Below are positions 348 through 55,410 of a stretch of 57,702 nucleotides of DNA, piece after piece. This DNA comes from an uncultured Clostridium sp. (GTDB lineage: Bacteria > Bacillota > Clostridia > Lachnospirales > Lachnospiraceae). Every line of letters starts with the position of its first letter. Within the stretch, counting starts at the first letter, position 1. The stretch covers positions 1-57,702 of the forward strand of contig CAMEWU010000001.1 of the NCBI GenBank assembly GCA_945946715.1. Direction: 5' to 3'. The notes beneath the pieces were generated by a model, which made no database searches, had not been told where the DNA came from, and worked only from the letters and a program-made list of their open reading frames with translations. The translations under genes and the position numbers were made by a program.

Positions 348-3300
348 ATGAAAAAGAAACTTACAAGTATGCAAATTATCTGTCGAATATTTGGTCTGGC
401 ATTCCTTTTTGTATGCCTTTATTTTGCTTTGGGCGAATGTTTTCTGCCGGATGAACAGGCAGAATATGAACCTTGTGAGGTGTTTCAAGCGGACTGGGAA
501 TGGGTAAAGGAAGACGGAACCAGAGAAGCGATTGCTATACCGGGACAATGTGATGCCCAGCGGAACGAGACAGTTACCATTGAGACAACACTTCCGGAAG
601 ATGTAGAACAAGGTATGTATTTGTGTTTCCGGAGTTCAAAGCAGGATATGCGGATTTTTGTTGATGGGAAGCTTCGTCAGGAATATTCTACAGAGGATAC
701 CCGACTGTTTGGTAGGAATAGTGCAGTTATTTATGTCTTTTTCAAACTGGAAGGGGAGGATGCAGGAAAAACTCTGACTTTGGAAACACGGACAGATTCT
801 TCCTATTCCGGTATTTTTTATCCAATTTACTATGGGGAACGCATGGAAATCTGGAACAATTTCTTTGCTCAATATGGAGTAGAATTGATTGTTGCATTTC
901 TGACGCTTTTTTTGGGGATTATTAGTGTGATTGGCAGTCTTGCATTGCAAATGGTATATCATCAGGATATTCATTTACAGTATTTGGGCTGGGGTGTCTC
1001 TTTGGCAGCAATTTGGCTAATAATGAATTCTGTTTTTCGTCAAGTGATTTTTACAAATATATCTGTAGTTAATGATATGACATTCTTTATGATTATGCTT
1101 CTTCCACTTCCGTTTATGATTTATATGAATAGTGTTCAACAATGTCGCTACGAGAAGGCATATACAATTGACGGGATATTGATAATAGTCAATTTCTGTA
1201 TTTGTACATTTCTGCATATGGTGAATTGGAAAGATTTTGCGGACACAATCGTTATAATAGCTCTTTTCTGTGTTGGTTCTATTGGATTAATGGGAGTAAC
1301 TATCCTGATAGATATATGGAAAAAACATATTAAGGATTATCGATTAGAGGCCATTGGGGTCTTGGGTGCATCTCTGGCAGCAGTATTGCAGATTGTGTTA
1401 TATTTTGTACGGGTAATCCAATTCAGTGGTACTATTTTGGCAATTGGCTTAATTTTTCTTCTGGTTACAGCAGTGGTTAAAACTATTCATAGCATTGTTG
1501 CCATGGAACAGGATAAGCAAAAAGCAATTCTATCCAGTGAAGCAAAAGCAAGATTTCTTGCAAATATGTCTCATGAAATTCGAACGCCGATTAATGCAGT
1601 GCTTGGTATGGATGCCATGATTCTTCGGGAATGTAAGGATATGCAGATTAAGGAATATGCCTTAGATATTCAGAATGCAGGACAGAATCTGCTGGCATTG
1701 GTAAATGATATTCTGGATTTATCCAAAGTGGAATCTGGTAAAATGGAATTGATTCCGGTGGAATATGATGTGAGCAGTATGGTACATGATATTACCAATA
1801 TGATTACCGTAAAAGCACAGGATAAAGACTTGGAGTTGAAAGTACAGGTGAATCCGAATCTGCCATCTCGTTTGTATGGAGATGAGGTTCGTATTCGTCA
1901 GATTTTGATTAATATATTGAACAATGCTGTAAAGTATACTCATGAAGGTAGCGTAGAACTTCGGATTGATGGACAGGTAGAAGAAGAACAGGTTCGGCTG
2001 GAATGCTCGGTAACAGATACAGGAATTGGTATTAAGGAAGAAGATTTACCAAAGCTGTTCGCAGAATTTGAACGGATTGAGGAACAAAAGAATCAAATGA
2101 TTGAGGGAACAGGACTTGGAATGAGTATTACTGCCAAGCTGTTAAACTTGATGGGAAGTAAACTTCAAGTGGAGAGCGTTTATGGAGAGGGTTCCCGGTT
2201 TTTCTTTGAATTGGATCAGTTGATTGTTGATCATAAGCCAATTGGAAATTTAGAGGAACGAATCCGGCAGCAGAGTATTGATTATGCATATCAGGCAGCA
2301 TTTACAGCACCAGAGGCAAGGCTATTAGTGGTAGATGATAATGTAGTAAATTTGAAAGTGTTTGTGAACCTATTAAAAGAAACACAGGTAAAAATAGATG
2401 CTGTTAGTAGCGGGCAGGAATGCTTGGATCTGGTAATAGACAAGCATTATGATATGATATTCCTGGATCATATGATGCCGGATATGGATGGTATTGAGAC
2501 GTTGCATCGAATGAAAGAAATGTCTGATTATCCATGTAAAGACACGCCGGTGATTGTGCTGACTGCCAATGCTGTATCAGGTGCTAAAGAAATGTATTTA
2601 TCTGAAGGGTTTGATGGATTCCTTTCTAAGCCGATTATGCCGGACCGCTTGGAGAATTTGATTCGGCAGACGTTACCTCAGGAGTTGTTACGTTTTGAAA
2701 CAAAGTCTGGAGATGAGATAGAGCACAATAAGGATTTGGATGGCAAAGGCCAATCAACGCAACAGCAGACAACAGCAGATTTACCGTATATAGCAGGAAT
2801 TAATTGGAGCTGTGCATGGTTGCATTTGCCGGAAAGGGAACTTCTGTTGGAAACAGTTCGTGATTTCTATCGTTCCATTGATACAGAAGCTGATTGTTTG
2901 GAAGAATACTATAATGCGAAAGACCTTGATGCTTATCGGATTAAGGTTCATGCCATGAAGAGTTCTGCAGCTTTGATAGGTGCCACTTCACTGTCGGATA
3001 TGGCAAAAATGTTAGAATATGCTGCCAGAGATAAGCAGGAGAATGTTATAGATAATTCTACAGCCGTTTTTTTGGAAGAGTGGCGCAGATATAAAGAAAA
3101 GCTCAGTGTTCTTGTGAAGGAAGAGACAGATAAACAAGAAGTGAAAGATAACACAGTGATTTTGGCATATTTGGAAATGCTGAGATTCGCCATGGAAGAC
3201 ATGGATATTGATGGTGCCGACCAGGCAATGGAGCAGTTGAGGCAATATCAGTATCCTTTGGAAATACAGGCAATGATAGATGAGCTTAGTGGAGCTGTGA

Positions 3301-3413
3301 CAAATTTGGATAGTGAACAGGCTGCAATACTAATTGAAAAACTTATGAATCAATTCAGAGGAAATGAGGGAAAAAAGGATGAAGAAGATACTCTTGATTG
3401 GAAAACTAGATAA
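348..3413 (+). CDS. Hybrid sensor histidine kinase: N-terminal extracytoplasmic region, about 7 TM helices, then HisKA, HATPase_c, REC and Hpt domains
   Basis: H-box FLANMSHEIRTPINAV, N-box ILNNAVKYT, G-boxes DTGIGI and GTGLGMSI. Receiver LLVVDDN...FLDHMMPDMDG...SKP. Hpt-like HAMKSSAALIGA. Long hydrophobic block at aa ~175-385. RBS AGAGGAA lies before the ATG. Confidence 0.9.
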   Translation: MKKKLTSMQIICRIFGLAFLFVCLYFALGECFLPDEQAEYEPCEVFQADWEWVKEDGTREAIAIPGQCDAQRNETVTIETTLPEDVEQGMYLCFRSSKQDMRIFVDGKLRQEYSTEDTRLFGRNSAVIYVFFKLEGEDAGKTLTLETRTDSSYSGIFYPIYYGERMEIWNNFFAQYGVELIVAFLTLFLGIISVIGSLALQMVYHQDIHLQYLGWGVSLAAIWLIMNSVFRQVIFTNISVVNDMTFFMIMLLPLPFMIYMNSVQQCRYEKAYTIDGILIIVNFCICTFLHMVNWKDFADTIVIIALFCVGSIGLMGVTILIDIWKKHIKDYRLEAIGVLGASLAAVLQIVLYFVRVIQFSGTILAIGLIFLLVTAVVKTIHSIVAMEQDKQKAILSSEAKARFLANMSHEIRTPINAVLGMDAMILRECKDMQIKEYALDIQNAGQNLLALVNDILDLSKVESGKMELIPVEYDVSSMVHDITNMITVKAQDKDLELKVQVNPNLPSRLYGDEVRIRQILINILNNAVKYTHEGSVELRIDGQVEEEQVRLECSVTDTGIGIKEEDLPKLFAEFERIEEQKNQMIEGTGLGMSITAKLLNLMGSKLQVESVYGEGSRFFFELDQLIVDHKPIGNLEERIRQQSIDYAYQAAFTAPEARLLVVDDNVVNLKVFVNLLKETQVKIDAVSSGQECLDLVIDKHYDMIFLDHMMPDMDGIETLHRMKEMSDYPCKDTPVIVLTANAVSGAKEMYLSEGFDGFLSKPIMPDRLENLIRQTLPQELLRFETKSGDEIEHNKDLDGKGQSTQQQTTADLPYIAGINWSCAWLHLPERELLLETVRDFYRSIDTEADCLEEYYNAKDLDAYRIKVHAMKSSAALIGATSLSDMAKMLEYAARDKQENVIDNSTAVFLEEWRRYKEKLSVLVKEETDKQEVKDNTVILAYLEMLRFAMEDMDIDGADQAMEQLRQYQYPLEIQAMIDELSGAVTNLDSEQAAILIEKLMNQFRGNEGKKDEEDTLDWKTR

Positions 3414-4161
3414 AATTGTTCAGAATTTGAATGAAAGTTTGTCGGGAAAGTTTAATGTTCAATTATGCTCTGAATCTATTGAATTAGTGCGGGGAATGAT
3501 GAAAATTGCAAAGCCGGATATGGTCATTATTTGCAGTATTAATGAAAAAGATATTCAATCTGAGATTTTTCAATTGCTTAGCAGCAATGCTTATTCCTAT
3601 ATCCCGGTTCTGGTAGTTGGGACAAGGGAAGGCTGCGATAAGTTTCAGGAATATTATGAGAAATACCAATTTGAGTATTTGATTCGGCCGATTAGTAGGG
3701 AAACACTTTTAAAAAAGTGTCAGGAACGCCTCAAATTAGTTAAAGCATCTGAAAATGATAGAGCTTCGCAGATAAATAACGAACCGGAAGTAGAAAAGAA
3801 GAGGATTTTGATTGTAGATGACAGTGCTTTGTCATTAAGAAGTGCAAAGGCAATTCTGGATAAAAAGTTCAATGTTACTGTTGCAACTTCCGGTAAACAG
3901 GCCATGATAGCGTTACAGAAGAAACGACCGGATTTAATTCTTTTGGATTATGAGATGCCTGAGTGGGACGGAAAAACTACCTTAGAAAAAATCAGACAGG
4001 AAAAAGAGTTGCAGGATATCCCGGTAATTTTCTTAACGGGTGTGGCAGATAAAGAACACATTACAGCGGTATTACGATTAAATCCGGCAGGGTACTTTTT
4101 AAAACCATTGGAAAAGGAAAAACTGTTAGAAGCAGTTGACAAGATTTTTGGAGAAGGATGA
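3379..4161 (+). CDS. Stand-alone response regulator with a degenerate pseudo-receiver and a canonical receiver domain, no output domain
   Basis: The second half has ILIVDDS...LILLDYEMPEWDG...FLTG...LKP. The first half lacks the acidic pocket and phospho-Asp (LLIGK, MVIICS). Start chosen at MKKILL after GAGGGA; an alternative ATG lies at 3364. Confidence 0.8.
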   Translation: MKKILLIGKLDKIVQNLNESLSGKFNVQLCSESIELVRGMMKIAKPDMVIICSINEKDIQSEIFQLLSSNAYSYIPVLVVGTREGCDKFQEYYEKYQFEYLIRPISRETLLKKCQERLKLVKASENDRASQINNEPEVEKKRILIVDDSALSLRSAKAILDKKFNVTVATSGKQAMIALQKKRPDLILLDYEMPEWDGKTTLEKIRQEKELQDIPVIFLTGVADKEHITAVLRLNPAGYFLKPLEKEKLLEAVDKIFGEG

Positions 4162-6155
4162 AAATGGCAAATGGGAAGGTTACAATTAAACAGATTGCAG
4201 ATATGGCAGGAGTATCTATCGCAACGGTTTCTCATGTGATTAACAGAACCCGATATGTGAGTCCTGAATTGGTGGAACGAATTGAAAGGATTATTCGGGA
4301 AACTGGCTATTCAGAAAAGATTGTAGAGAAAGAGCGAAAACTAAAGGTAGGAAAAGCATCCATGATTGTTGCGGTATTTCCAAATGTCAGCAGTACTATT
4401 TATCGGGATATGGTAGATTATCTTCGGCAATTAATTACGGAGCAAGGATACCGCTTCTATGTGGCAGTTACGGGAAATGATAAGGAAGAGGAATGCCAAT
4501 TGCTGGAAGGACTGCTTTCTGAAAAAAAAATAGCAGGTATTCTTCATGTGCCGGTTAGTGAAGCGGCCTCCGATTATAAAATGTTGATTCAGTCAGGAGT
4601 GCCGTTTGTGTGCATGGAACGGAATCTGCTGGGAGAAGGTATTGATGCAGTAGAATTTCGGGATAGAGAAGGCATGTTTGCAGGAACAGAATATCTGTTA
4701 AAGTGTGGTCATCGGAATATTTTGTTGCTGAGGGAACAATCTCCCAGCACTACACGTGAAGAACGCACTCGGGGTTTTATAGAAGCGTTACAGCAGTACA
4801 ATATTAATGTGAATGATGCCAATATTGAAGATATTAATATAGGAAATGAGGATAAAAGCAGAATTGCTATTCAACGGGCACTGAATCGAATTATGCCTAC
4901 AGCAGTGATAACAAGTGGCAATCGGTTGACTTTGTATCTGATGAAGACGGTGCGTGATCTGGGTATAGAATGCCCTGAGGAATTGTCGGTAATTGGCTTC
5001 GGAGATGATAGTTGGAGTGAATTAACCTATCCTCCGCTTACTATATTAAAACGGGATGTGAAGGGATTATGCCAGCGGGCAACAGCTATGCTATTTGAGA
5101 AAATCAATGCAGGAAAAGTAATCATGGAAGATTGCTATGCAGATATTGAGTTGATAGTGCGAAAATCCACCAAAATGCTGGACAGTGGTCCATATGGTGA
5201 ACGAGCAGCAACACCGGATAGTATAGTTTTGACAAATGAAGAAAAAAAACAATTACGAAATGGACATTTTCGTGTGGCAATTTCGTTTCATTATACAGGT
5301 ACTGCATGGGCGGAACTTCATGAAAAGGGAATCCGGGATGAATTGGAACGATATGGAATAGATATAGTATCGGTAATGGATGCTCATTTTGACCCCAAAC
5401 TTCAGAATGTACAATTAGAAGGTTTACGGTTACAAAGGCCGGATGCTGTAATTGCGATTCCGGTAGATGATAAGGCAACGGCTGTAAAGTTTCAAGAATT
5501 ATCGGCAGTATCAAAACTGGTATTTTTGAGTAATGTTCCGGAAAAACTAAATAAGAACAATTACGTATCCTGTGTGTCAGTAAATGAATGGGAAAATGGT
5601 ACGAATACAGGCCGCCTTATGGGAGAGTATTTTAAGGAAAGAAAATCTGTAAAGGCAGGGTTTATTATTCATGGAGCTGCCTTTTCCGCAACTCGTTCCA
5701 GAGATTCTGCGGCAGAAAAAATCATACAGGATAACTACAAGAATATTGAAATAGTTACAGTACGCAATTTTGTCCAGATTGAAAACACCTATCAGGTGTG
5801 TAAGGAAGTTATGGAAATGCATCCGGAAATTGAAACGCTTTATATTAGTTGGGATCAACCGGCACTTCTGGCAATAAAAGCCTTGAAGGAATTGGGCAGA
5901 AGTGATGTGGCAGTATTTACAACGGACTTAGATAGAGATATTGCATATTGTATGGAAGAGGGCATTGTGCGGGGGATGAGTACCCAACGGCCATATGAAC
6001 AGGGTAGAACAGCAGCGTTAGTTGTGGCAAAGGCGCTGGTGAGCGATGGTATACCAAAATATGTGGGAGTGCAGCCGTATATTGTGGAAGGAAAGCAATT
6101 GAGGCGTGCATGGAAGGATATTTTTCATGAACCAATGCCGGAACGGTTGAAGTAG
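4158..6155 (+). CDS. LacI-family HTH regulator carrying two tandem periplasmic-binding-protein-type sugar-binding domains (665 aa)
   Basis: N-terminus is VTIKQIADMAGVSIATVSHVINRTRYVS (LacI HTH). The usual PBP1 core follows (aa ~65-340), then a second ribose-binding-protein-like domain (aa ~370-650). The ATG overlaps the stop of the upstream gene (ATGA). Confidence 0.8.
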   Translation: MKMANGKVTIKQIADMAGVSIATVSHVINRTRYVSPELVERIERIIRETGYSEKIVEKERKLKVGKASMIVAVFPNVSSTIYRDMVDYLRQLITEQGYRFYVAVTGNDKEEECQLLEGLLSEKKIAGILHVPVSEAASDYKMLIQSGVPFVCMERNLLGEGIDAVEFRDREGMFAGTEYLLKCGHRNILLLREQSPSTTREERTRGFIEALQQYNINVNDANIEDINIGNEDKSRIAIQRALNRIMPTAVITSGNRLTLYLMKTVRDLGIECPEELSVIGFGDDSWSELTYPPLTILKRDVKGLCQRATAMLFEKINAGKVIMEDCYADIELIVRKSTKMLDSGPYGERAATPDSIVLTNEEKKQLRNGHFRVAISFHYTGTAWAELHEKGIRDELERYGIDIVSVMDAHFDPKLQNVQLEGLRLQRPDAVIAIPVDDKATAVKFQELSAVSKLVFLSNVPEKLNKNNYVSCVSVNEWENGTNTGRLMGEYFKERKSVKAGFIIHGAAFSATRSRDSAAEKIIQDNYKNIEIVTVRNFVQIENTYQVCKEVMEMHPEIETLYISWDQPALLAIKALKELGRSDVAVFTTDLDRDIAYCMEEGIVRGMSTQRPYEQGRTAALVVAKALVSDGIPKYVGVQPYIVEGKQLRRAWKDIFHEPMPERLK

Positions 6156-33887: not shown

Positions 33888-33910
33888 AGCAACCAGAAAA
33901 AGGAAAATAA

Positions 33911-34170
33911 ACCGATGAGCAAGAGGAGTAGGCAGGCATGAAGCACCCAGAGAGCCGTAGGTGGTGAGATTACGGCAGTGGATAACCTGGTGAATGGGCT
34001 TGCGAGGGTGGCTTGAAATCATGTAAAGCATGAGAGTAGATGTCAACGGGGTTCCTGCCGTTATCAGAAGGAGACATATGGAAGTATGTTCAGAGTGGGT
34101 ATAGATATACCAATTTGGGTGGTACCGCAGAAGTGTAAGCTTTTGTCCCTTAGTAGGGACAAATACCTTT
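33911..34170 (+). promoter_or_regulatory. T-box riboswitch leader with specifier codon UGG (tryptophan), including antiterminator and terminator
   Basis: K-turn GATGA...GA. Specifier loop AGTA / GAA-TGG-G (codon at 33995-33997). AG bulge AGAGAG and distal loop GGTGGTGAGA. T-box AATTTGGGTGGTACCGCAG (34113-34130). Terminator TTTGTCCCT-TAGT-AGGGACAAA. Confidence 0.85.
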
Positions 34171-47832: not shown

Positions 47833-48246
47833 TTATTCATCCTGTACTTGTGAAAGGTCGGTTATATCCCGGTAAGAAGCCGGTAAATGAATTCGGCTGG
47901 ATACCTGATAGATACTTAGTGGTGTTGTATAAATATCCAATTGATACAGATTCACACCAATTTCATAAAGGGAAGTCTTTAAGTCCTCAAAAAATACGTC
48001 CCCGATGTTTTCCATATTTGGAACCAGAGTTTGAAATGCAGGTATGTCATTTAGGACACAATGCTCATACTGATTCAAATACTGTGTTACGATTTTATCA
48101 ATATCAAAAAACATAATTTGTTCTGTCTGCTGTTCTTTACTTACATATATTGTGATAGTAAAGGTATGTTGGTGTTGATGTTCTTTTTTATAATCAAAAC
48201 TATGTGTAGCATTAAAACGGTACTGGTATTTATAATACTTCTGCAT
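47833..48246 (-). CDS. Small PTPS-related protein (first gene of the exosortase operon)
   Basis: YRFNATHSF...HQHQHTFTITIYV shows a His pattern of the T-fold PTPS/QueD type. GAGGTG RBS before MQKYYKY; the ORF track start at 48267 is an extension. Confidence 0.6.
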   Translation of the reverse strand: MQKYYKYQYRFNATHSFDYKKEHQHQHTFTITIYVSKEQQTEQIMFFDIDKIVTQYLNQYEHCVLNDIPAFQTLVPNMENIGDVFFEDLKTSLYEIGVNLYQLDIYTTPLSIYQVSSRIHLPASYRDITDLSQVQDE

Positions 48247-48467
48247 AAAAAGCACCTCAAATATCATTTTCTATCGTAGGATACTATAATACTTTTTTGT
48301 CGAATTTTCATTGTAAATTTATGTTGTTTTATGTAAAATCTAACAGTTAAATAAAATTTTATAATTGATTTTATGGTTGTATATGATATCGGCAGGGTAA
48401 AATTAAAAAAATAGACAGAATACCATACATTTAAATGTTATTTTAGTGGCTCAAAGTTACTAGTCGT

Positions 48468-48496
48468 TTGACAAAGAATAGGGAAGTTGATACTAT
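48468..48496 (+). promoter_or_regulatory. Sigma-A-type promoter
   Basis: TTGACA, 17 nt, TACTAT. Confidence 0.5.
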
Positions 48497-48533
48497 GATG
48501 TTATAACTTGTAAATAATAAGGAGGAAGAGAAA

Positions 48534-49456: not shown

Positions 49457-49918
49457 CTAAATCTGTTTAATTAAGTTCACCATTTCAATAGCAGACAATG
49501 CACAGTCATAGCCCTTATTTCCGGCTTTGGTACCGGCACGTTCAATTGCCTGTTCAATACTATCCGTGGTTACAACACCGAATAATACCGGAACCTCTGA
49601 TTGTAAAGAAACCTGTGCGATTCCCTTGGATACCTCATTACATACATAATCATAATGACTGGTAGCTCCGCGAATAACAGCACCTACACAGATGACTGCA
49701 TCATACTTACCGGATTTTGCCATTTTTTCAGCAATCAATGGGATTTCAAAGGCACCCGGTACCCAGGCAGTGGTAATGTCTTCTTCCTTAACACCATGAC
49801 GTACCAAACCATCAATAGCACCACCTAATAATTTGCTGGTAATGAATTCGTTAAAACGGGATGCAACGATTCCTACCTTCATGTCCTGTGCAACTAATTT
49901 TCCTTCTAAAGTGTTCAT
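49457..49918 (-). CDS. ribH: 6,7-dimethyl-8-ribityllumazine synthase
   Basis: [21 protein letters not shown] and THYDYV motifs. Confidence 0.95.
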
Positions 49919-49941: not shown

Positions 49942-50856
49942 TTATTTATTATAATTATTTAAATGAGTATCTATATAATCCATAAATGGTTTCTTACTGA
50001 CTTGCTCTTGGTTGTTTTTGTACCAGTCATATGCTTCCTGTAAACCATCGAATAATGGCTTTGTATCAGGTATGAATTGGAGTTGCTTTGTTACATCAAG
50101 ATAGTATTCATAATCATAGAAACTAAAATATTTTCGTTGGTCTATATCTTCGAATACAGATATGAATTCCACTGGTTTGTTTACAATACCATAGCAAAGT
50201 TCCACCCATTCACGAATGGAAACGGTCTCTTGGTTTCCTACATTAAAAATATGCTGATAAGGCTTGGCGTCTAAGATGGCATCTATAAATCGGCATAAAT
50301 CATGGACGTGGAAAAACTGCAATTGCATTTCTCCGTTTTCAGGCAGATAGAATTTTCGGTTTTCCAAAGCACAGTCAAAAACAAATGCTTCTCTGTAAAT
50401 ATCATTCATGGGACCATATAAATATGGTGGACGAAGAATGTAAGCATTGGGATTCCTATCTAAAAGTGCCTGTTCTGCTTCAATCTTATCCGTTCCATAT
50501 TTGCCCCAATATTTATTAGCCCCTACTTGGGTTGCTTCTGTAAATGGCTGTAGAGAATACTCAGGATATACAGCACTGGAGCTGATGAGAACATATTCAT
50601 CATAGCTTCCTAAGGCATCAAGTAACAAATCAACGTCTTTGGCAGTATAGGCAGTAACATCAATTACAGCATCGAAATGAAAAGGACGAAGAACATCACC
50701 TAAATGATTCCTGTCTGCCTGAATCAGCTTTGCTCCTGCAGATTGTGGTCTGCTGTTTCTGTTGAGTACATAAACATCATAGCCTTTGGCAATATAGTAT
50801 TCTGCTACATATCTGCTGACAAATACAGTTCCGCCGGTTACAAGGATTGTTGGCAT
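49942..50856 (-). CDS. NAD-dependent epimerase/dehydratase (SDR) family protein, inserted between ribBA and ribH
   Basis: N-terminal Rossmann motif [11 protein letters not shown] and a Y-x3-K region (YGTDK). AGGAGG RBS. Lies 23 nt upstream of the ribH start. Confidence 0.7.
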
Positions 50857-50877
50857 CTATAGTTCCTCCTGTTATTG

Positions 50878-51474
50878 TAAATTATGGTTTAACACAATAA
50901 CCTTCAACCGCGGTTCCGAGGATATAGGTCTGCACGAGACGCGTTAATCGCACTTCGTGCTCACGGGTAGTGCACTGACGTGCACGTAGGTCGTAAGGAA
51001 TCCTCCCACTTCGTGGGTCCCTCCTTGCGACAAGATACACTCCTGCCAGCACGTAGCGGTACGTAAGGCTGTGCATTAACATGTACAAAGATTGTTTATA
51101 TCTAAGCACAGCCTAAGGACCGACGTGCTTCTAGGGCCTCGTGCGGACCTATATCCTCAAACCGCTGTGTTAGAAATCGTCAAAAATCATAATTTATAGT
51201 GTGGCAAGTAGTAAGGCTCCGCGAGAATTATAGTAATTTTAACTTGCGCGGAGCGGTACTATTTACTCCAATATAAATTATGGGTTTTACCAGAGTAGAT
51301 GTTCGGCGGATGAATCTATATGCTTGATGCAGGCTCTAAAAGTACGTCGGTACTTGGATTGCGTTTTTTGCAATCCTATGTACCGCTACGTACTGACCGA
51401 AGCGAAAGCGGGTCTGCATTAAGCATATAGATTCGAAGCCGAATGGTATACTGGTGCGTTAAACCATAATTTAT
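50878..51474 (+). ncRNA. Unclassified ~600-nt GC-rich, densely self-complementary noncoding element: module 1 at 50878-51196, hairpin at 51216-51254, module 2 at 51274-51474. Structured RNA(s) or a MITE-like insertion; strand assignment tentative.
   Basis: Each module is closed by an inverted pair of the motif TAAATTATGGTTT. Two 21-bp helices (50918-50938/51138-51158 and 51312-51332/51414-51434) each carry one G-T pair that is a wobble only on the plus strand. GAAA tetraloop hairpin at 51402-51409 and several local hairpins. Confidence 0.45.
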
Positions 51475-51485
51475 CAAACCATAAT

Positions 51486-52697
51486 TTATTTACCCAGATG
51501 CGAAAAAATATGCCCCATCTTTTCTTCCTTGGTTTTCATATAAAAAGCATCATATTTTTGTACCGGAACTTCAATTGGTACACGCTCTTTAATCTGCAAT
51601 CCATAACCATCCAGTCCGTATATTTTACTTGGATTATTGGTCAGCAGACGTAATTCCTTGATACCTAAATCCCGAAGAATCTGGGCTCCTACCCAGTATT
51701 CCCGAAGGTCTGGTGCGAAGCCTAAGTCTAAGTTGGCTTCTACAGTATCTCGCCCTTTTTCCTGTAGCTCATAGGCTTTCAATTTATTGATTAATCCGAT
51801 ACCCCGGCCTTCCTGTCGCATATACAGAAGTACGCCCCGGCCTTCCTTTTCAATCTGTCGCAAAGCACTGGCTAATTGCTGTCCGCAGTCACAACGCAGG
51901 GAGCCGAATACATCTCCGGTTAAGCATTCAGAATGAACCCGGCAAAGCACATCCATGCCGTCGCCGATATCGCCCTTCACCAAAGCAATATGGTGTTCGC
52001 CGGTAATATCACTGACATAGCCATATGCCTTGAAGGTTCCGTATTCCGTTGGAAGATTTACTTCTGCTTCCCGACTGACATGTTTTTCGTGGAGACGGCA
52101 GTAATCCTGTAAGTCTTTGATGGTAATAAATGCAATGTTGTGTTCCTTTGCAATTTCAATTAATTCCGGTGTACGCATCATATGTCCGTCCTCTGCCATG
52201 ATTTCACAGCAAAGGCCGCAAGGTTTCAAACCTGCCAGTCGCATTAGGTCTACCGTTGCTTCTGTATGCCCGTTTCGAACCAGAACACCGCCGGATCTGG
52301 CAACCAGAGGAAACATATGTCCCGGTCTGCGGAAATCACTTGGTTTTGCGTCATCGGCAACTGCATTCATTGCAGTAATGGAACGTTCATATGCAGAAAT
52401 ACCCGTAGTGGTATCTATATGGTCGATACTGACGGTAAAAGCAGTGCAGTGATTGTCCGTATTCTCTGATACCATCTGAGGGACATTCAGTTTGTCAGCC
52501 AGTTCTTTTGACATTGGCATACAGATTAAGCCTTTGCCATGAACAGCCATGAAGTTAACATTTTCGCCGGTAGCAAACTCAGCAGCACAGATAAAATCCC
52601 CTTCATTTTCCCGGTCAGGGTCATCGGTACAGAGAATAATCTTTCCGGCACGTAGTTCGTCTAATGCATGTTCTATGGTTGAGAATTCAAACTCCAT
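51486..52697 (-). CDS. ribBA: Bifunctional 3,4-dihydroxy-2-butanone-4-phosphate synthase / GTP cyclohydrolase II
   Basis: [14 protein letters not shown], and CDCG...GRGIGL motifs. Confidence 0.95.
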
Positions 52698-53481: not shown

Positions 53482-54573
53482 TTAGGAAATACAGTCATAT
53501 TCCAGCAGAACATCATTACCAAAGGTCTGAACCTTCGGATTGGTGAGTTTGAAGCTGTCAGCAACCGCCTGAATGCCACTGCCACTAACGGGAGTAAATC
53601 GGTTGATGCCGCCGAAAATCTGTGCACCGACATAAGCATATACATGGTGTACCTGTCTTTCTGCTATAAATGCAGCATTTATGGTACCACCACCTTCTAC
53701 TAAGATACCGTCAATATCCTGTTGTCCTAATTTCTGTAATAAATCTGCAATGTCAATGGTTCCGTCTTTTTCTTTTATAAATAATACTTGTACTCCTTTC
53801 GCTTCTAAAGCCGCCTGTTTATTCTGTGGATCATCTACACAGGCAACAATCACAGGAGCCTGCTTGGTAGTGTTGCATATCTGACAGTCCAGAGGAATAC
53901 GCAAGTGGCTGTCACAGACAATTCGCACCGGATTCCTGCCTTCCGGAATACGACAGGTTAAAAGAGGGTTGTCCTGCAATACGGTGCCGATTCCAACCAG
54001 AATCCCTTTGTAGTAATTCCGCAGCTGGTGTACATGATTTCTTGCCGGTTCTCCGGTAATCCATTGGGATTCTCCGGAATTGACTGCGATTTTGCCATCT
54101 GCAGTCATGGCATATTTTAAAGCCACATAGGGTTCCTTGTTCCGGATATAATGAAAAAAGACCGGATTCAATGTATCACATTCATCACGAAGAAAATCTT
54201 CTACGACTTCAATTCCTGCTTCACGAAGGATAGCAGCGCCCTTGCCGGACACCTTGGGATTCGGATCTCTGGAGCCAATAACTACCTTTGCCAGCTTATG
54301 TTCGATAATAGCCTCTGTGCAGGGAGGTGTTTTGCCATAATGACAGCAGGGTTCCAGTGTCACATAAATGGTTGCTCCCTCTGCTGATTCCTTACAATTT
54401 GCCAGTGCATTTCGTTCCGCATGGAGTCCACCGATATATTGGTGATAACCTTCTCCAATGATTTTATCATTTTTTACAATCACAGCACCTACCATAGGGT
54501 TAGGATTGGTTTTTCCTACGGCCAGTGCAGCAAGCTCTATGGCACGTCGCATATATGCTTCTTCTTTCATCAC
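53482..54573 (-). CDS. ribD: Bifunctional diaminohydroxyphosphoribosylaminopyrimidine deaminase / 5-amino-6-(5-phosphoribosylamino)uracil reductase
   Basis: HAERNAL and LEPCCHYGKTPPC deaminase motifs plus a C-terminal reductase domain. Confidence 0.95.
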   Translation of the reverse strand: MMKEEAYMRRAIELAALAVGKTNPNPMVGAVIVKNDKIIGEGYHQYIGGLHAERNALANCKESAEGATIYVTLEPCCHYGKTPPCTEAIIEHKLAKVVIGSRDPNPKVSGKGAAILREAGIEVVEDFLRDECDTLNPVFFHYIRNKEPYVALKYAMTADGKIAVNSGESQWITGEPARNHVHQLRNYYKGILVGIGTVLQDNPLLTCRIPEGRNPVRIVCDSHLRIPLDCQICNTTKQAPVIVACVDDPQNKQAALEAKGVQVLFIKEKDGTIDIADLLQKLGQQDIDGILVEGGGTINAAFIAERQVHHVYAYVGAQIFGGINRFTPVSGSGIQAVADSFKLTNPKVQTFGNDVLLEYDCIS

Positions 54574-55136
54574 GGCACCTCCCGGGAAATGGACTCTATA
54601 TAATTTTTTGTATGTGTCATAATAACAGATAAATTAGTAATGTCTTTAAAAGCATCGCCGGTTTCCAGGGAATGATTTCCGCCCTCGGTGATAAAAAGAG
54701 GAAGACCATGCTCCTCACAGCCTTGTATTACAATATCGGTTGATACCCACGGGTCATTGGTTCCGGTAAATACAATACCTTCCGTTCCCATGAAATCAAA
54801 GGAAGCAGCCACAGGGGTGTAATATACATGATAAGTGGTCAACGGATGCTCTTTTGTATAAGCAGCTGCAACAGCCGTTCCTACACTCTTGGAAATAAAC
54901 AGAATATCACTATAACCGGAAAAATCAATCTTGCTTAAGATGTCTTCTGTCTGAGATAGAGCAGTTAAGAAGGCTTTCTTCATTTTGTCCGGCGAACCCT
55001 TGATATCACGTTCAAAGGGACCATAGGTGACTTCCATTATCTCAAAGCCATATTCTTTTGCCAGCTTCTTGCTATAATATAGAAGTGGCTTATCGGTATG
55101 ATAACCAATTCCCGGAAAAATAACAGCTAATTTCAT
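54570..55136 (-). CDS. Small alpha/beta-hydrolase-fold protein, first gene of the FMN-riboswitch-controlled rib operon
   Basis: Candidate triad FISKSVG (Ser), GTNDPW (Asp) and GGNHS (His). Its stop overlaps the ribD ATG (ATGA). Confidence 0.6.
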   Translation of the reverse strand: MKLAVIFPGIGYHTDKPLLYYSKKLAKEYGFEIMEVTYGPFERDIKGSPDKMKKAFLTALSQTEDILSKIDFSGYSDILFISKSVGTAVAAAYTKEHPLTTYHVYYTPVAASFDFMGTEGIVFTGTNDPWVSTDIVIQGCEEHGLPLFITEGGNHSLETGDAFKDITNLSVIMTHTKNYIESISREVP

Positions 55137-55254: not shown

Positions 55255-55410
55255 TAAAAAACTGGAATACAGGGATTCCAGAGCATTCATTCTATCATCT
55301 TCTCTCATCCAGACTATACTGTCGGCTTCGGAATTACACCGAATCATGCCTTGTGGCTCGCGGGCTGTACCGCCGGTAGGGAATTACACCCTGCCCTGAA
55401 GAATCTTCAT
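55255..55410 (-). promoter_or_regulatory. FMN riboswitch (RFN element) with terminator
   Basis: Minus strand reads CAGGGCAGGGTGTAATTCCCTACCGGCGGTACAGCCCGCGAGCC...GATTCGGTGTAATTCCGAAGCCGACAGTATAGTCTGGATGAGAGAAG, then CTGGAATCCCTGTATTCCAG followed by TTTTTT. Confidence 0.95.

Follow-up and report, generated by a model that had tools for sequence, protein, structure and literature searches.

Two inverted members of a dispersed, strongly folded repeat family, probably mobile DNA, in a riboflavin operon of Lachnospiraceae

What occupies about 600 nucleotides of non-coding DNA between two genes of a riboflavin (rib) operon? The question arises in an uncultured Clostridium sp. of the Lachnospiraceae (assembly GCA_945946715.1, contig CAMEWU010000001.1), of which we analysed positions 1 to 57,702, referred to here as the window. 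An element at 50878-51474 takes up the whole gap from the stop codon of ribBA (51486-51488) to the ribosome-binding site (RBS) of an NAD-dependent epimerase gene (start 50856). A first-pass annotation, made from the letters alone, had offered three identities for it: a large ornate non-coding RNA (ncRNA) read from the plus strand, a pair of foldback elements resembling miniature inverted-repeat transposable elements (MITEs), or an intron or ribozyme remnant. Our analysis points to a composite of two diverged members of a dispersed, non-coding, strongly folded repeat family of Lachnospiraceae, which is probably selfish mobile DNA.

Two homologous modules in inverted orientation

The element is built from two heavily paired modules, module 1 (50878..51196) and module 2 (51274..51474), and a spacer (51197..51273) that contains the hairpin GGCTCCGCG...CGCGGAGC at 51216-51254 (inverted repeat I1). 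On the plus strand, the folding energies are -139.6 kcal/mol (z -10.7) for module 1 and -99.0 kcal/mol (z -11.5) for module 2; on the minus strand, they are -138.3 kcal/mol (z -9.6) and -79.1 kcal/mol (z -8.9), respectively. No shuffled sequence reached an equal energy for either module on either strand. The G+C content of the element is 0.47-0.53, compared to 0.25-0.31 in the AT-rich intergenic DNA at 48100-48500. A 75-aa open reading frame (ORF) within it lacks a Pfam match, and a homologous composite from another genome (L092, described below) does not conserve it.

The motif TAAATTATGGTTT is present in five copies with at most one mismatch (50878+, 51184-, 51274+, 51461- and 51476-), and no further copy at this threshold is found elsewhere in the 57.7-kb window. 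The outer left terminal repeat TAAATTATGGTTTAACACA (50878..50896, plus strand) pairs with the outer right terminal repeat TGCGTTAAACCATAATTTA (51455..51473, plus strand). This 19-nt inverted pair (I7) is 95% complementary and closes the whole composite; the 21-bp rod helices of the two modules (I5 and I6) are also 95% complementary. The fifth motif copy (51476..51488, minus strand) lies over the ribBA stop codon, within a 15-nt tandem duplication (ATAAATTATGGTTTG / ATAAATTATGGTTTA) that is lacking in a near-identical strain (L009). The duplication could have been left behind by an earlier insertion or excision event. RibBA also ends differently from strain to strain, with SHLGK in the window and SHLNR in L009 (window 51461-51490, L009 280-300). 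The first-pass annotation had described the paired modules, the five motif copies including the one at the stop codon, the 21-bp helices, the spacer hairpin, the elevated G+C content and the lack of a credible ORF, and on all of these points it was correct.

The relationship between the modules becomes apparent from a covariance model (R1) built from 62 copies of the family, which recognises one core in each module, on opposite strands. In module 2, the three-way-junction core (51320..51425, plus strand) scores 98 bits (E 4e-24). It comprises the inner rod, a helix termed P4 (ACGUCGGUAC-UU-stem-loop-UAU-GUACCG-CU-ACGU) and a GNRA mini-hairpin, GC-GAAA-GC, at 51402-51409, the latter being the GAAA tetraloop of the first-pass annotation. 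The core of module 1 (51018..51150, minus strand) scores 49.1 bits (E 6e-11); in its plus-strand reading it contains ACGTAGCGGTAC-[stem-loop]-AAGGACCGACGT at 51051-51126. Module 2 is a near-canonical member. Module 1 is a large, expanded one, in which a terminal helix and the 21-bp rod surround a multi-branch junction, the P4 tip is longer and the position of the mini-hairpin (P5) is expanded into larger hairpins. The two modules are homologous units of one family, inverted to each other. Two complementary 12-mers (I4), one in each module, had been read as a possible inter-module pairing. The complementarity is real, but it reflects one conserved core present in two inverted homologs, so that the region is a heterodimer of one element type and not a single RNA. 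The units are arranged tail-to-tail, with the 5' ends of their favoured strands pointing at the central spacer hairpin and the 19-bp outer repeat enclosing both.

Read on the favoured strand (S, defined below), a unit typically measures 135-200 nt, with a median of 151, its ends being set by helix tracing. Across the family, each unit is a rod of about 135-320 nt closing a conserved three-way junction. The long helix P3 (~25-35 bp) is wholly different in sequence between copies, yet its pairing is always kept. Conserved letters are found in the junction strands, ..GACC-GU.. and ..C-N-GAGCG.., and in P4, where ACGUCGGUAC pairs with GUACCG-CU-ACGU around a 2-nt bulge. An internal loop (UU/UAU) follows, and then a 7-bp variable stem, the loop of which is usually GUAYUUU. 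P5 is the mini-hairpin G-C-[GNRA]-G-C.

This structure is strongly supported by covariation. In alignment A2, 89% of the cells are paired, compared to 71% after shuffling. Its covariation score of 0.457 is reached by none of 500 shuffles, for which the value is 0.14; slid controls give at most 0.105. RNAalifold agrees with the A2 structure. Alignment A4 includes matches beyond the exact search pattern, although its fitting to the model biases it towards the structure; it contains double compensatory changes in 27 of 29 pairs, even in the near-invariant base of P4. The internal loop of P4 (C-UU-AG / CU-UAU-G; window 51354-51381, plus strand; A2 columns 34-38 / 57-62) resembles the 11-nt GAAA tetraloop receptor, U-AU-GG / CC-UAA-G. 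Judged by this likeness, it could dock the GNRA loop of P5. At another locus (L019), two 96%-identical copies on one contig (1700-2100 and 4960-5360) lie within a larger unit of ~330 nt bearing a 31-nt outer inverted repeat (CGTTTCACGGGGACAGGCTTTTTGTTTCACC), indicating that some subfamilies carry additional nested rods.

The two strands of a unit are not equivalent. The small loop is of the GNRA type (GAAA, GAGA, GGGA, GCAA or GCGA) only when read on S. When both strands of 114 modules are folded, S contains 186 stacked G·U pairs and its complement 102, while single A·C mismatches show the opposite trend (53 and 96). S is the more stable strand in 94 of the 114 modules, the mean difference being 6.6 kcal/mol. 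Since the genomic orientation of the copies is random, a mutational strand bias cannot explain the asymmetry, which points to selection acting on S as a single strand, be it RNA or single-stranded DNA (ssDNA).

Within the window, module 2 has S on the plus strand and module 1, by homology, on the minus strand. The full fold of module 2 contains nine G·U pairs on the plus strand and none on the minus strand. That of module 1 contains six and seven, respectively, and is uninformative. A plus-strand RNA had been proposed on the basis of four G-T pairs in the helices. These pairs are indeed on the plus strand, and the inference holds for module 2 but not for module 1. Transcription of the rib operon yields the S strand of module 1 and the complement of S for module 2.

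Distribution of the family and turnover at the rib site

The family was traced with the exact core pattern ACGTAGCGGTAC N{23,53} AAGNACCGACGT in a collection of species-representative genomes. Among the matches listed, there are at least 120 loci in 79 genomes, nearly all of them Lachnospiraceae. The carriers include Acetatifactor, Agathobacter, Butyrivibrio, Coprococcus, Kineothrix, Eisenbergiella, Hungatella, Ca. Fimimorpha and many unnamed metagenome-assembled genomes (MAGs), and none of the listed loci is a rib operon. Applied to the collected loci, R1 finds ~150 copies, including diverged partners that the exact pattern missed. The sampled fragments of one MAG contain up to 11 copies. The model identifies nothing in the window beyond modules 1 and 2, and no modules in 31.7 kb of control Lachnospiraceae DNA from the loci of distant epimerase homologs. 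The exact pattern has no match in viral contigs, and BLAST against plasmid and phage collections returned no similarity, indicating a chromosomal family. Two metagenome scans, with the ribBA 3' end and a module-1-type 28-mer, gave no matches.

The family does not correspond to a described RNA in the searches made. At gathering thresholds, Rfam identifies only an FMN riboswitch and a T-box in the window, both away from the element. Rfam 15 applied to 50700-51650 at E <= 10 yields only chance matches of the microRNA or snoRNA type (at most 18 bits), and nothing is detected at the modules of 18 other loci (>25 modules). Literature searches found no description of such an element family, although it may be among the thousands of unnamed candidates in surveys of microbiome RNA (PMC8040213).

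All copies are intergenic, none being located in a credible gene, and they often extend from a stop codon to the next RBS. With the flanking genes written for the strand opposite S, the arrangement is >E> (co-directional) in 34 cases and <E< (anti-directional) in 30, with 19 convergent and 7 divergent; E denotes the element and the arrows the direction of the gene on each side. Local GC skew places S on the G-rich strand at 46 loci and on the C-rich strand at 50, i.e. there is no replication-strand bias. The neighbours are unrelated housekeeping genes: 150 adjacent ORFs contain 164 Pfam families, of which the commonest, DegV, occurs four times. No recurrent transposase, recombinase or reverse transcriptase is present among these ORFs by Pfam, and clustering of 947 ORFs reveals no recurrent neighbour protein, only housekeeping genes.

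Within a genome, copies with unrelated flanks are up to 92-96% identical. Subfamily-specific terminal inverted repeats travel with the element and are conserved across loci; they read TAAATTAWGGTTTA in the clade of the window, CCTTTTTACA (...TGTAAAAAGG) in Agathobacter and ATTGCGAAACTC (...GAGTTTCGCAAT) in Fimimorpha. Close inverted pairs have the same polarity in 14 of 14 cases, with the 5' ends of S toward the centre. Tandem pairs in the same orientation also exist (n=5; L015, L022, L040, L052 and L084). More widely spaced (-,+) pairs were considered as the ends of cargo transposons and rejected: they flank ordinary single genes, with no transposase between or beside them.

The whole composite of module 1, spacer and module 2 recurs in MAG RGIG8631 (L092), between a dipeptidase gene and a DUF711-like gene, with ~78% identity and covarying rods. 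Positions 3248-3560 of this locus are a close homolog of module 1 in an unrelated context. The same MAG carries window-type modules at two more loci (L053 and L059), and the spacer hairpin is kept in L092, L053 and a rib-site relative, L004. At L053, an ORF with a heavy-metal-associated start (MEQYSVTGMSCAVCSTRV...; 5425-5500) ends abruptly at the element, which here consists of a module-1 remnant (its end), the spacer hairpin and one unit of the module-2 type. A copper-ATPase or chaperone gene may thus have been truncated or rearranged in association with the element.

The rib site itself is polymorphic. Assemblies with 98-100% identical flanking proteins display three alleles: the composite of the window (also in L003), a different, L023-like module type within the same boundaries (L001 and L002), and a gap of 35 nt with the intergenic sequence GATAAATTATGGTTTAACGCAATAACAGGAGG (L009). 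The last, from a near-identical relative, lacks all of the composite except GATAAATTATGGTTTAACGC, which is identical to the outer right terminal repeat and is joined to the RBS through a 2-bp microhomology. Because it retains a terminal repeat, L009 may be a deletion remnant rather than a virgin target, and no target-site duplication can be stated.

In the more distant L004 (73% epimerase identity), the occupant measures 567 nt. Its module-2-type unit, a homolog of module 2 with a covarying rod (3770-3975), lies beside the epimerase gene instead of ribBA, and a different structured module, unrecognised by R1, replaces module 1 next to the same spacer hairpin. In a species at 81% identity, a module-1-type end is located where the window has it. 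This diversity of alleles indicates that the site has long been occupied and that its content changes quickly.

Two further observations concern the occupants of this site. In L004 (3436-3690) and L002 (3838-3970), the ribBA-proximal position is taken by a different module, GC-rich and strongly paired, that starts with AAATTTCGGTTTA; the L002 piece resembles the flank of an L023-type module. This may be a second structured repeat family with similar ends. Independent metagenome assemblies (k = 31 to 141; L001, L002, L003 and L005-L008) end ~20-130 nt inside the element, on either side. These contig ends are consistent with graph breaks induced by repeats or heterogeneity, and they imply systematic under-assembly of the element.

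Known elements and alternative explanations

The closest parallels in behaviour are found among REP, BIME and REPIN sequences, palindromic repeats tagged with GTAG and CGTC (PMC3116915, Bertels & Rainey 2011; PMC3733652, Di Nocera et al. 2013). Both groups consist of dispersed extragenic repeats that form hairpins, occur as inverted pairs in which one polarity prevails, frequently heterodimers around a structured spacer, and prefer gaps with co-directional or convergent flanking genes. Members of both may abut stop codons or supply them, keep their pairing within genomes through compensatory changes, and differ in presence from strain to strain. The tag letters are found here as well, in the core beside the conserved stem, where one strand reads AC-GTAG-CGGTAC and its complement A-CGTC-GGTAC.

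The units described here are, however, 135-320 nt in size with a three-way junction and a GNRA hairpin, in place of a simple palindrome of 20-40 nt. Their GTAG/CGTC letters are base-paired and covarying, unlike an unpaired tag, and the favoured strand is the one without GTAG. There are five tandem same-orientation pairs, whereas head-to-tail dimers of REPs are negligible. No RAYT gene was found in the 0.97 Mb of collected sequence, nor any such family among the 150 neighbouring ORFs, and the copy numbers seen are lower. A survey of tagged REPs (PMC3733652) never mentions Firmicutes, to which the present host belongs. Membership in the REP/BIME/REPIN group fails on two defining features, namely unit size and shape and the unpaired tag, and an associated RAYT was not found in the sequence collected.

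Bacterial MITEs, e.g. Correia, RUP and ERIC/IRU, have been reviewed (PMC3184786). The family shares with them a small, non-coding, multi-copy nature and terminal inverted repeats (13-19 nt here), as well as an intergenic position, frequent co-transcription, stable folds and strain polymorphism. The bcr repeats of Bacillus cereus are a close comparison as well. In contrast to MITEs, the collected loci provide neither a target-site duplication nor a parent insertion sequence with matching ends, the ends vary by subfamily while the internal junction is the conserved part, and a clear single-strand asymmetry (G·U, GNRA) is present.

Among the three identities offered initially, the MITE-like foldback pair nevertheless comes closest: the modules are separate, occur singly elsewhere, are dispersed and are strain-polymorphic. 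The first-pass annotation had reasoned that many near-identical dispersed copies with target-site duplications and no transcript would mark a plain MITE, and that a lack of covariation or an Rfam match would remove the novelty of the element. The many dispersed copies do fit a MITE, yet they are diverged and strongly covarying and have no Rfam match.

Non-autonomous elements derived from IS200/IS605, the PATEs, are moved as ssDNA by HUH Y1 transposases (PMC6006769). The likeness lies in a strand-specific structural constraint and in conserved imperfect hairpins with bulges; PATEs also lack a target-site duplication, and none could be defined for our copies. PATEs, however, are without terminal inverted repeats and carry a pair of subterminal hairpins, as opposed to one central junction with closing inverted repeats here. 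Their insertion is biased by replication direction, which is not the case for our copies (46 vs 50 by GC skew), and no TnpA was found near the latter. An ssDNA element of the IS200/IS605 type is disfavoured by the absence of replication bias together with the presence of closing inverted repeats.

We consider the family as probably selfish, non-autonomous mobile DNA that would be analogous to REPINs/BIMEs or MITEs and would need the folded S strand to propagate or persist. It would spread via a single-stranded S intermediate, ssDNA or RNA, and a trans-acting enzyme encoded elsewhere would recognise the folded junction. At the rib locus, the composite is most likely a tolerated passenger, or at most an mRNA-structure element, and not a regulator of riboflavin synthesis.

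Several observations weigh against this interpretation. No transposase, recombinase or reverse transcriptase is located beside any copy in the collected loci, and phmmer detects no IS200 or RAYT homolog in the 0.97 Mb of collected sequence. The copies examined share no consistent flanking direct repeat or clear target-site duplication, and a TA dinucleotide is inseparable from the TAAATT...AATTTA ends. Terminal repeats that vary between subfamilies are unusual for elements served by one transposase, no genome is seen to carry more than tens of copies, as opposed to hundreds, and the sole "empty" allele, L009, may be a deletion product. Furthermore, the described REPs and MITEs are all less elaborate than this three-way junction, in which a GNRA loop is combined with a receptor-like internal loop and which is deeply conserved across an entire family of bacteria; such a fold would also suit a functional RNA.

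The last point leads to the main alternative, in which each module would be a gene or cis-element of a functional structured RNA made from S (e.g. protein-binding, structural or catalytic), the fold is kept by host selection and dispersal by duplication is secondary. The very strong covariation, the conserved junction, the GNRA tetraloop confined to one strand, the G·U asymmetry in favour of the same strand and the receptor-like appearance of the UU/UAU loop in the alignment are all expected for such an RNA, and -10-like boxes are weakly enriched upstream of S (24-29/113 vs 14-17/113). We still regard it as unlikely. The orientation of S relative to the flanking genes is random, U-tracts are not enriched after S, leaving no terminator signature, and -35/-10 promoter sequences in the window are at chance level. 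Copies fill stop-to-RBS gaps inside operons, vary in number and have no conserved gene neighbourhood, and the element is dispensable in the near-identical strain L009. An independent small RNA gene in particular is not supported, its own promoter and intrinsic terminator not being found in a consistent orientation.

The proposal of one ornate plus-strand ncRNA of ~600 nt, antisense to the rib operon, fares much worse, and we judge it very improbable. The whole region does fold better on the plus strand (-276 vs -260 kcal/mol), L092 has kept the composite as one unit, and no Rfam family matches it. Yet its halves are inverted homologs with opposite favoured strands and, family-wide, random orientation, and most members of the family, at 135-200 nt, occur as one module alone. 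Relative to the genes, L004 has the modules in reverse order, with another element in place of module 1. No promoter or terminator above background was found, and the region is absent in L009. OLE, ROOL, GOLLD, HEARO and raiA RNAs are similarly GC-rich, multi-helix, non-coding, found in Firmicutes and close in combined size, but no covariance model of theirs matches, and two inverted multi-copy units differ from a single-copy RNA gene.

It is also conceivable, with low probability, that the element is a substrate of site-specific recombination, with the 13-nt motif as crossover site and structured segments that are swapped or inverted, in the manner of an invertible switch, an integron attC-like cassette site or an Xer-type module. 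Near-identical strains do carry different cassettes within the same motif-bearing boundaries, the L004 composite is inverted relative to the genes, and many metagenome contigs break inside the element. The core consensus of integron attC sites is RYYYAAC / GTTRRRY, and the outer pair GTTTAAC/GTTAAAC fits it. On the other hand, no recombinase or integrase is encoded near the element in the window or beside other copies. The motif is limited to one subfamily, others having unrelated ends; there is no internal promoter for a switch, and L001 is not an inverted form of the window composite. The attC, Xer and inverton versions were rejected, as consistent core sites and a recombinase are both missing; for attC in particular, only the outer pair fits, the inner motif copies as well as L004 and L092 do not, and no integrase is nearby.

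Finally, a degenerate intron or the remnant of a self-cleaving ribozyme, the least probable of these explanations, would agree with a compact multi-helix junction that bears a GNRA loop within an operon. No group I or II intron or ribozyme family matches here at E <= 10, or at the 18 other loci scanned, and the copies are intergenic, outside genes or tRNAs, and in both orientations.

The rib operon and the significance of the family

The rib genes are encoded on the minus strand in the order FMN riboswitch (55293-55407), a 188-aa ORF, ribD, ribE, ribBA, the element, the epimerase gene and ribH. The gene upstream of the element, ribBA (51486..52697, minus strand), contains the Pfam domains DHBP_synthase and GTP_cyclohydro2. 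Downstream of it lie the NAD-dependent epimerase gene (49942..50856, minus strand; Pfam Epimerase) and then ribH (49457-49918, minus strand; Pfam DMRL_synthase). As it sits between ribBA and the epimerase gene, the composite is transcribed within the riboswitch-controlled rib mRNA, and read-through of the element is required of this transcript.

The arrangement with an epimerase gene between ribBA and ribH is seen only in the clade of the window (window, L004 and L006). More distant epimerase homologs (70-75% identity; L130-L134) are found in unrelated contexts outside rib operons. The 188-aa ORF (54570-55136, minus strand), the first gene after the FMN riboswitch and located before ribD, lacks a Pfam match; in L004, too, ribD is preceded by an unannotated ORF of similar kind (~183 aa). 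Its product might be an uncharacterised riboflavin-related protein or transporter. Other known RNAs in the material include the T-box leader of the window (33906-34153, plus strand), a second T-box leader at L079 (3950-4161), a TwoAYGGAY RNA at L111 (5163-5327) and a 6S RNA at L104 (5225-5413), the last ~300 nt from a module.

Structured repeats of the REP and REPIN type have been described chiefly in Proteobacteria, besides a small number of other phyla, with no described counterpart in the Firmicutes that dominate gut and rumen. The family described here is distinguished by its three-way-junction core, its strand asymmetry, its gut and rumen Firmicutes hosts and its insertion into operons of core metabolism, with no partner enzyme found. 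We tentatively entertain a bolder possibility, that the S fold is the active form of an unrecognised class of structured nucleic acid in Lachnospiraceae. This could be a widespread new functional or catalytic RNA, or the intermediate of a seemingly protein-free mobile element copied through RNA or ssDNA, resembling a bacterial short interspersed element (SINE) or retrozyme, with machinery of a new type. Cultured carriers include Coprococcus ammoniilyticus H1_22, Kineothrix sp. MSJ-39, Butyrivibrio sp. WCD3002 and Lachnospiraceae bacteria NC2004 and XBB1006.

The family also bears on genome annotation. Contigs break at its copies, spurious ORFs are called inside them, and they can be taken for an "ornate RNA"; a covariance model would improve all three. 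For the host, ~600 nt of very stable structure between ribBA and ribH may affect the stoichiometry with which the genes of the riboflavin operon are expressed.

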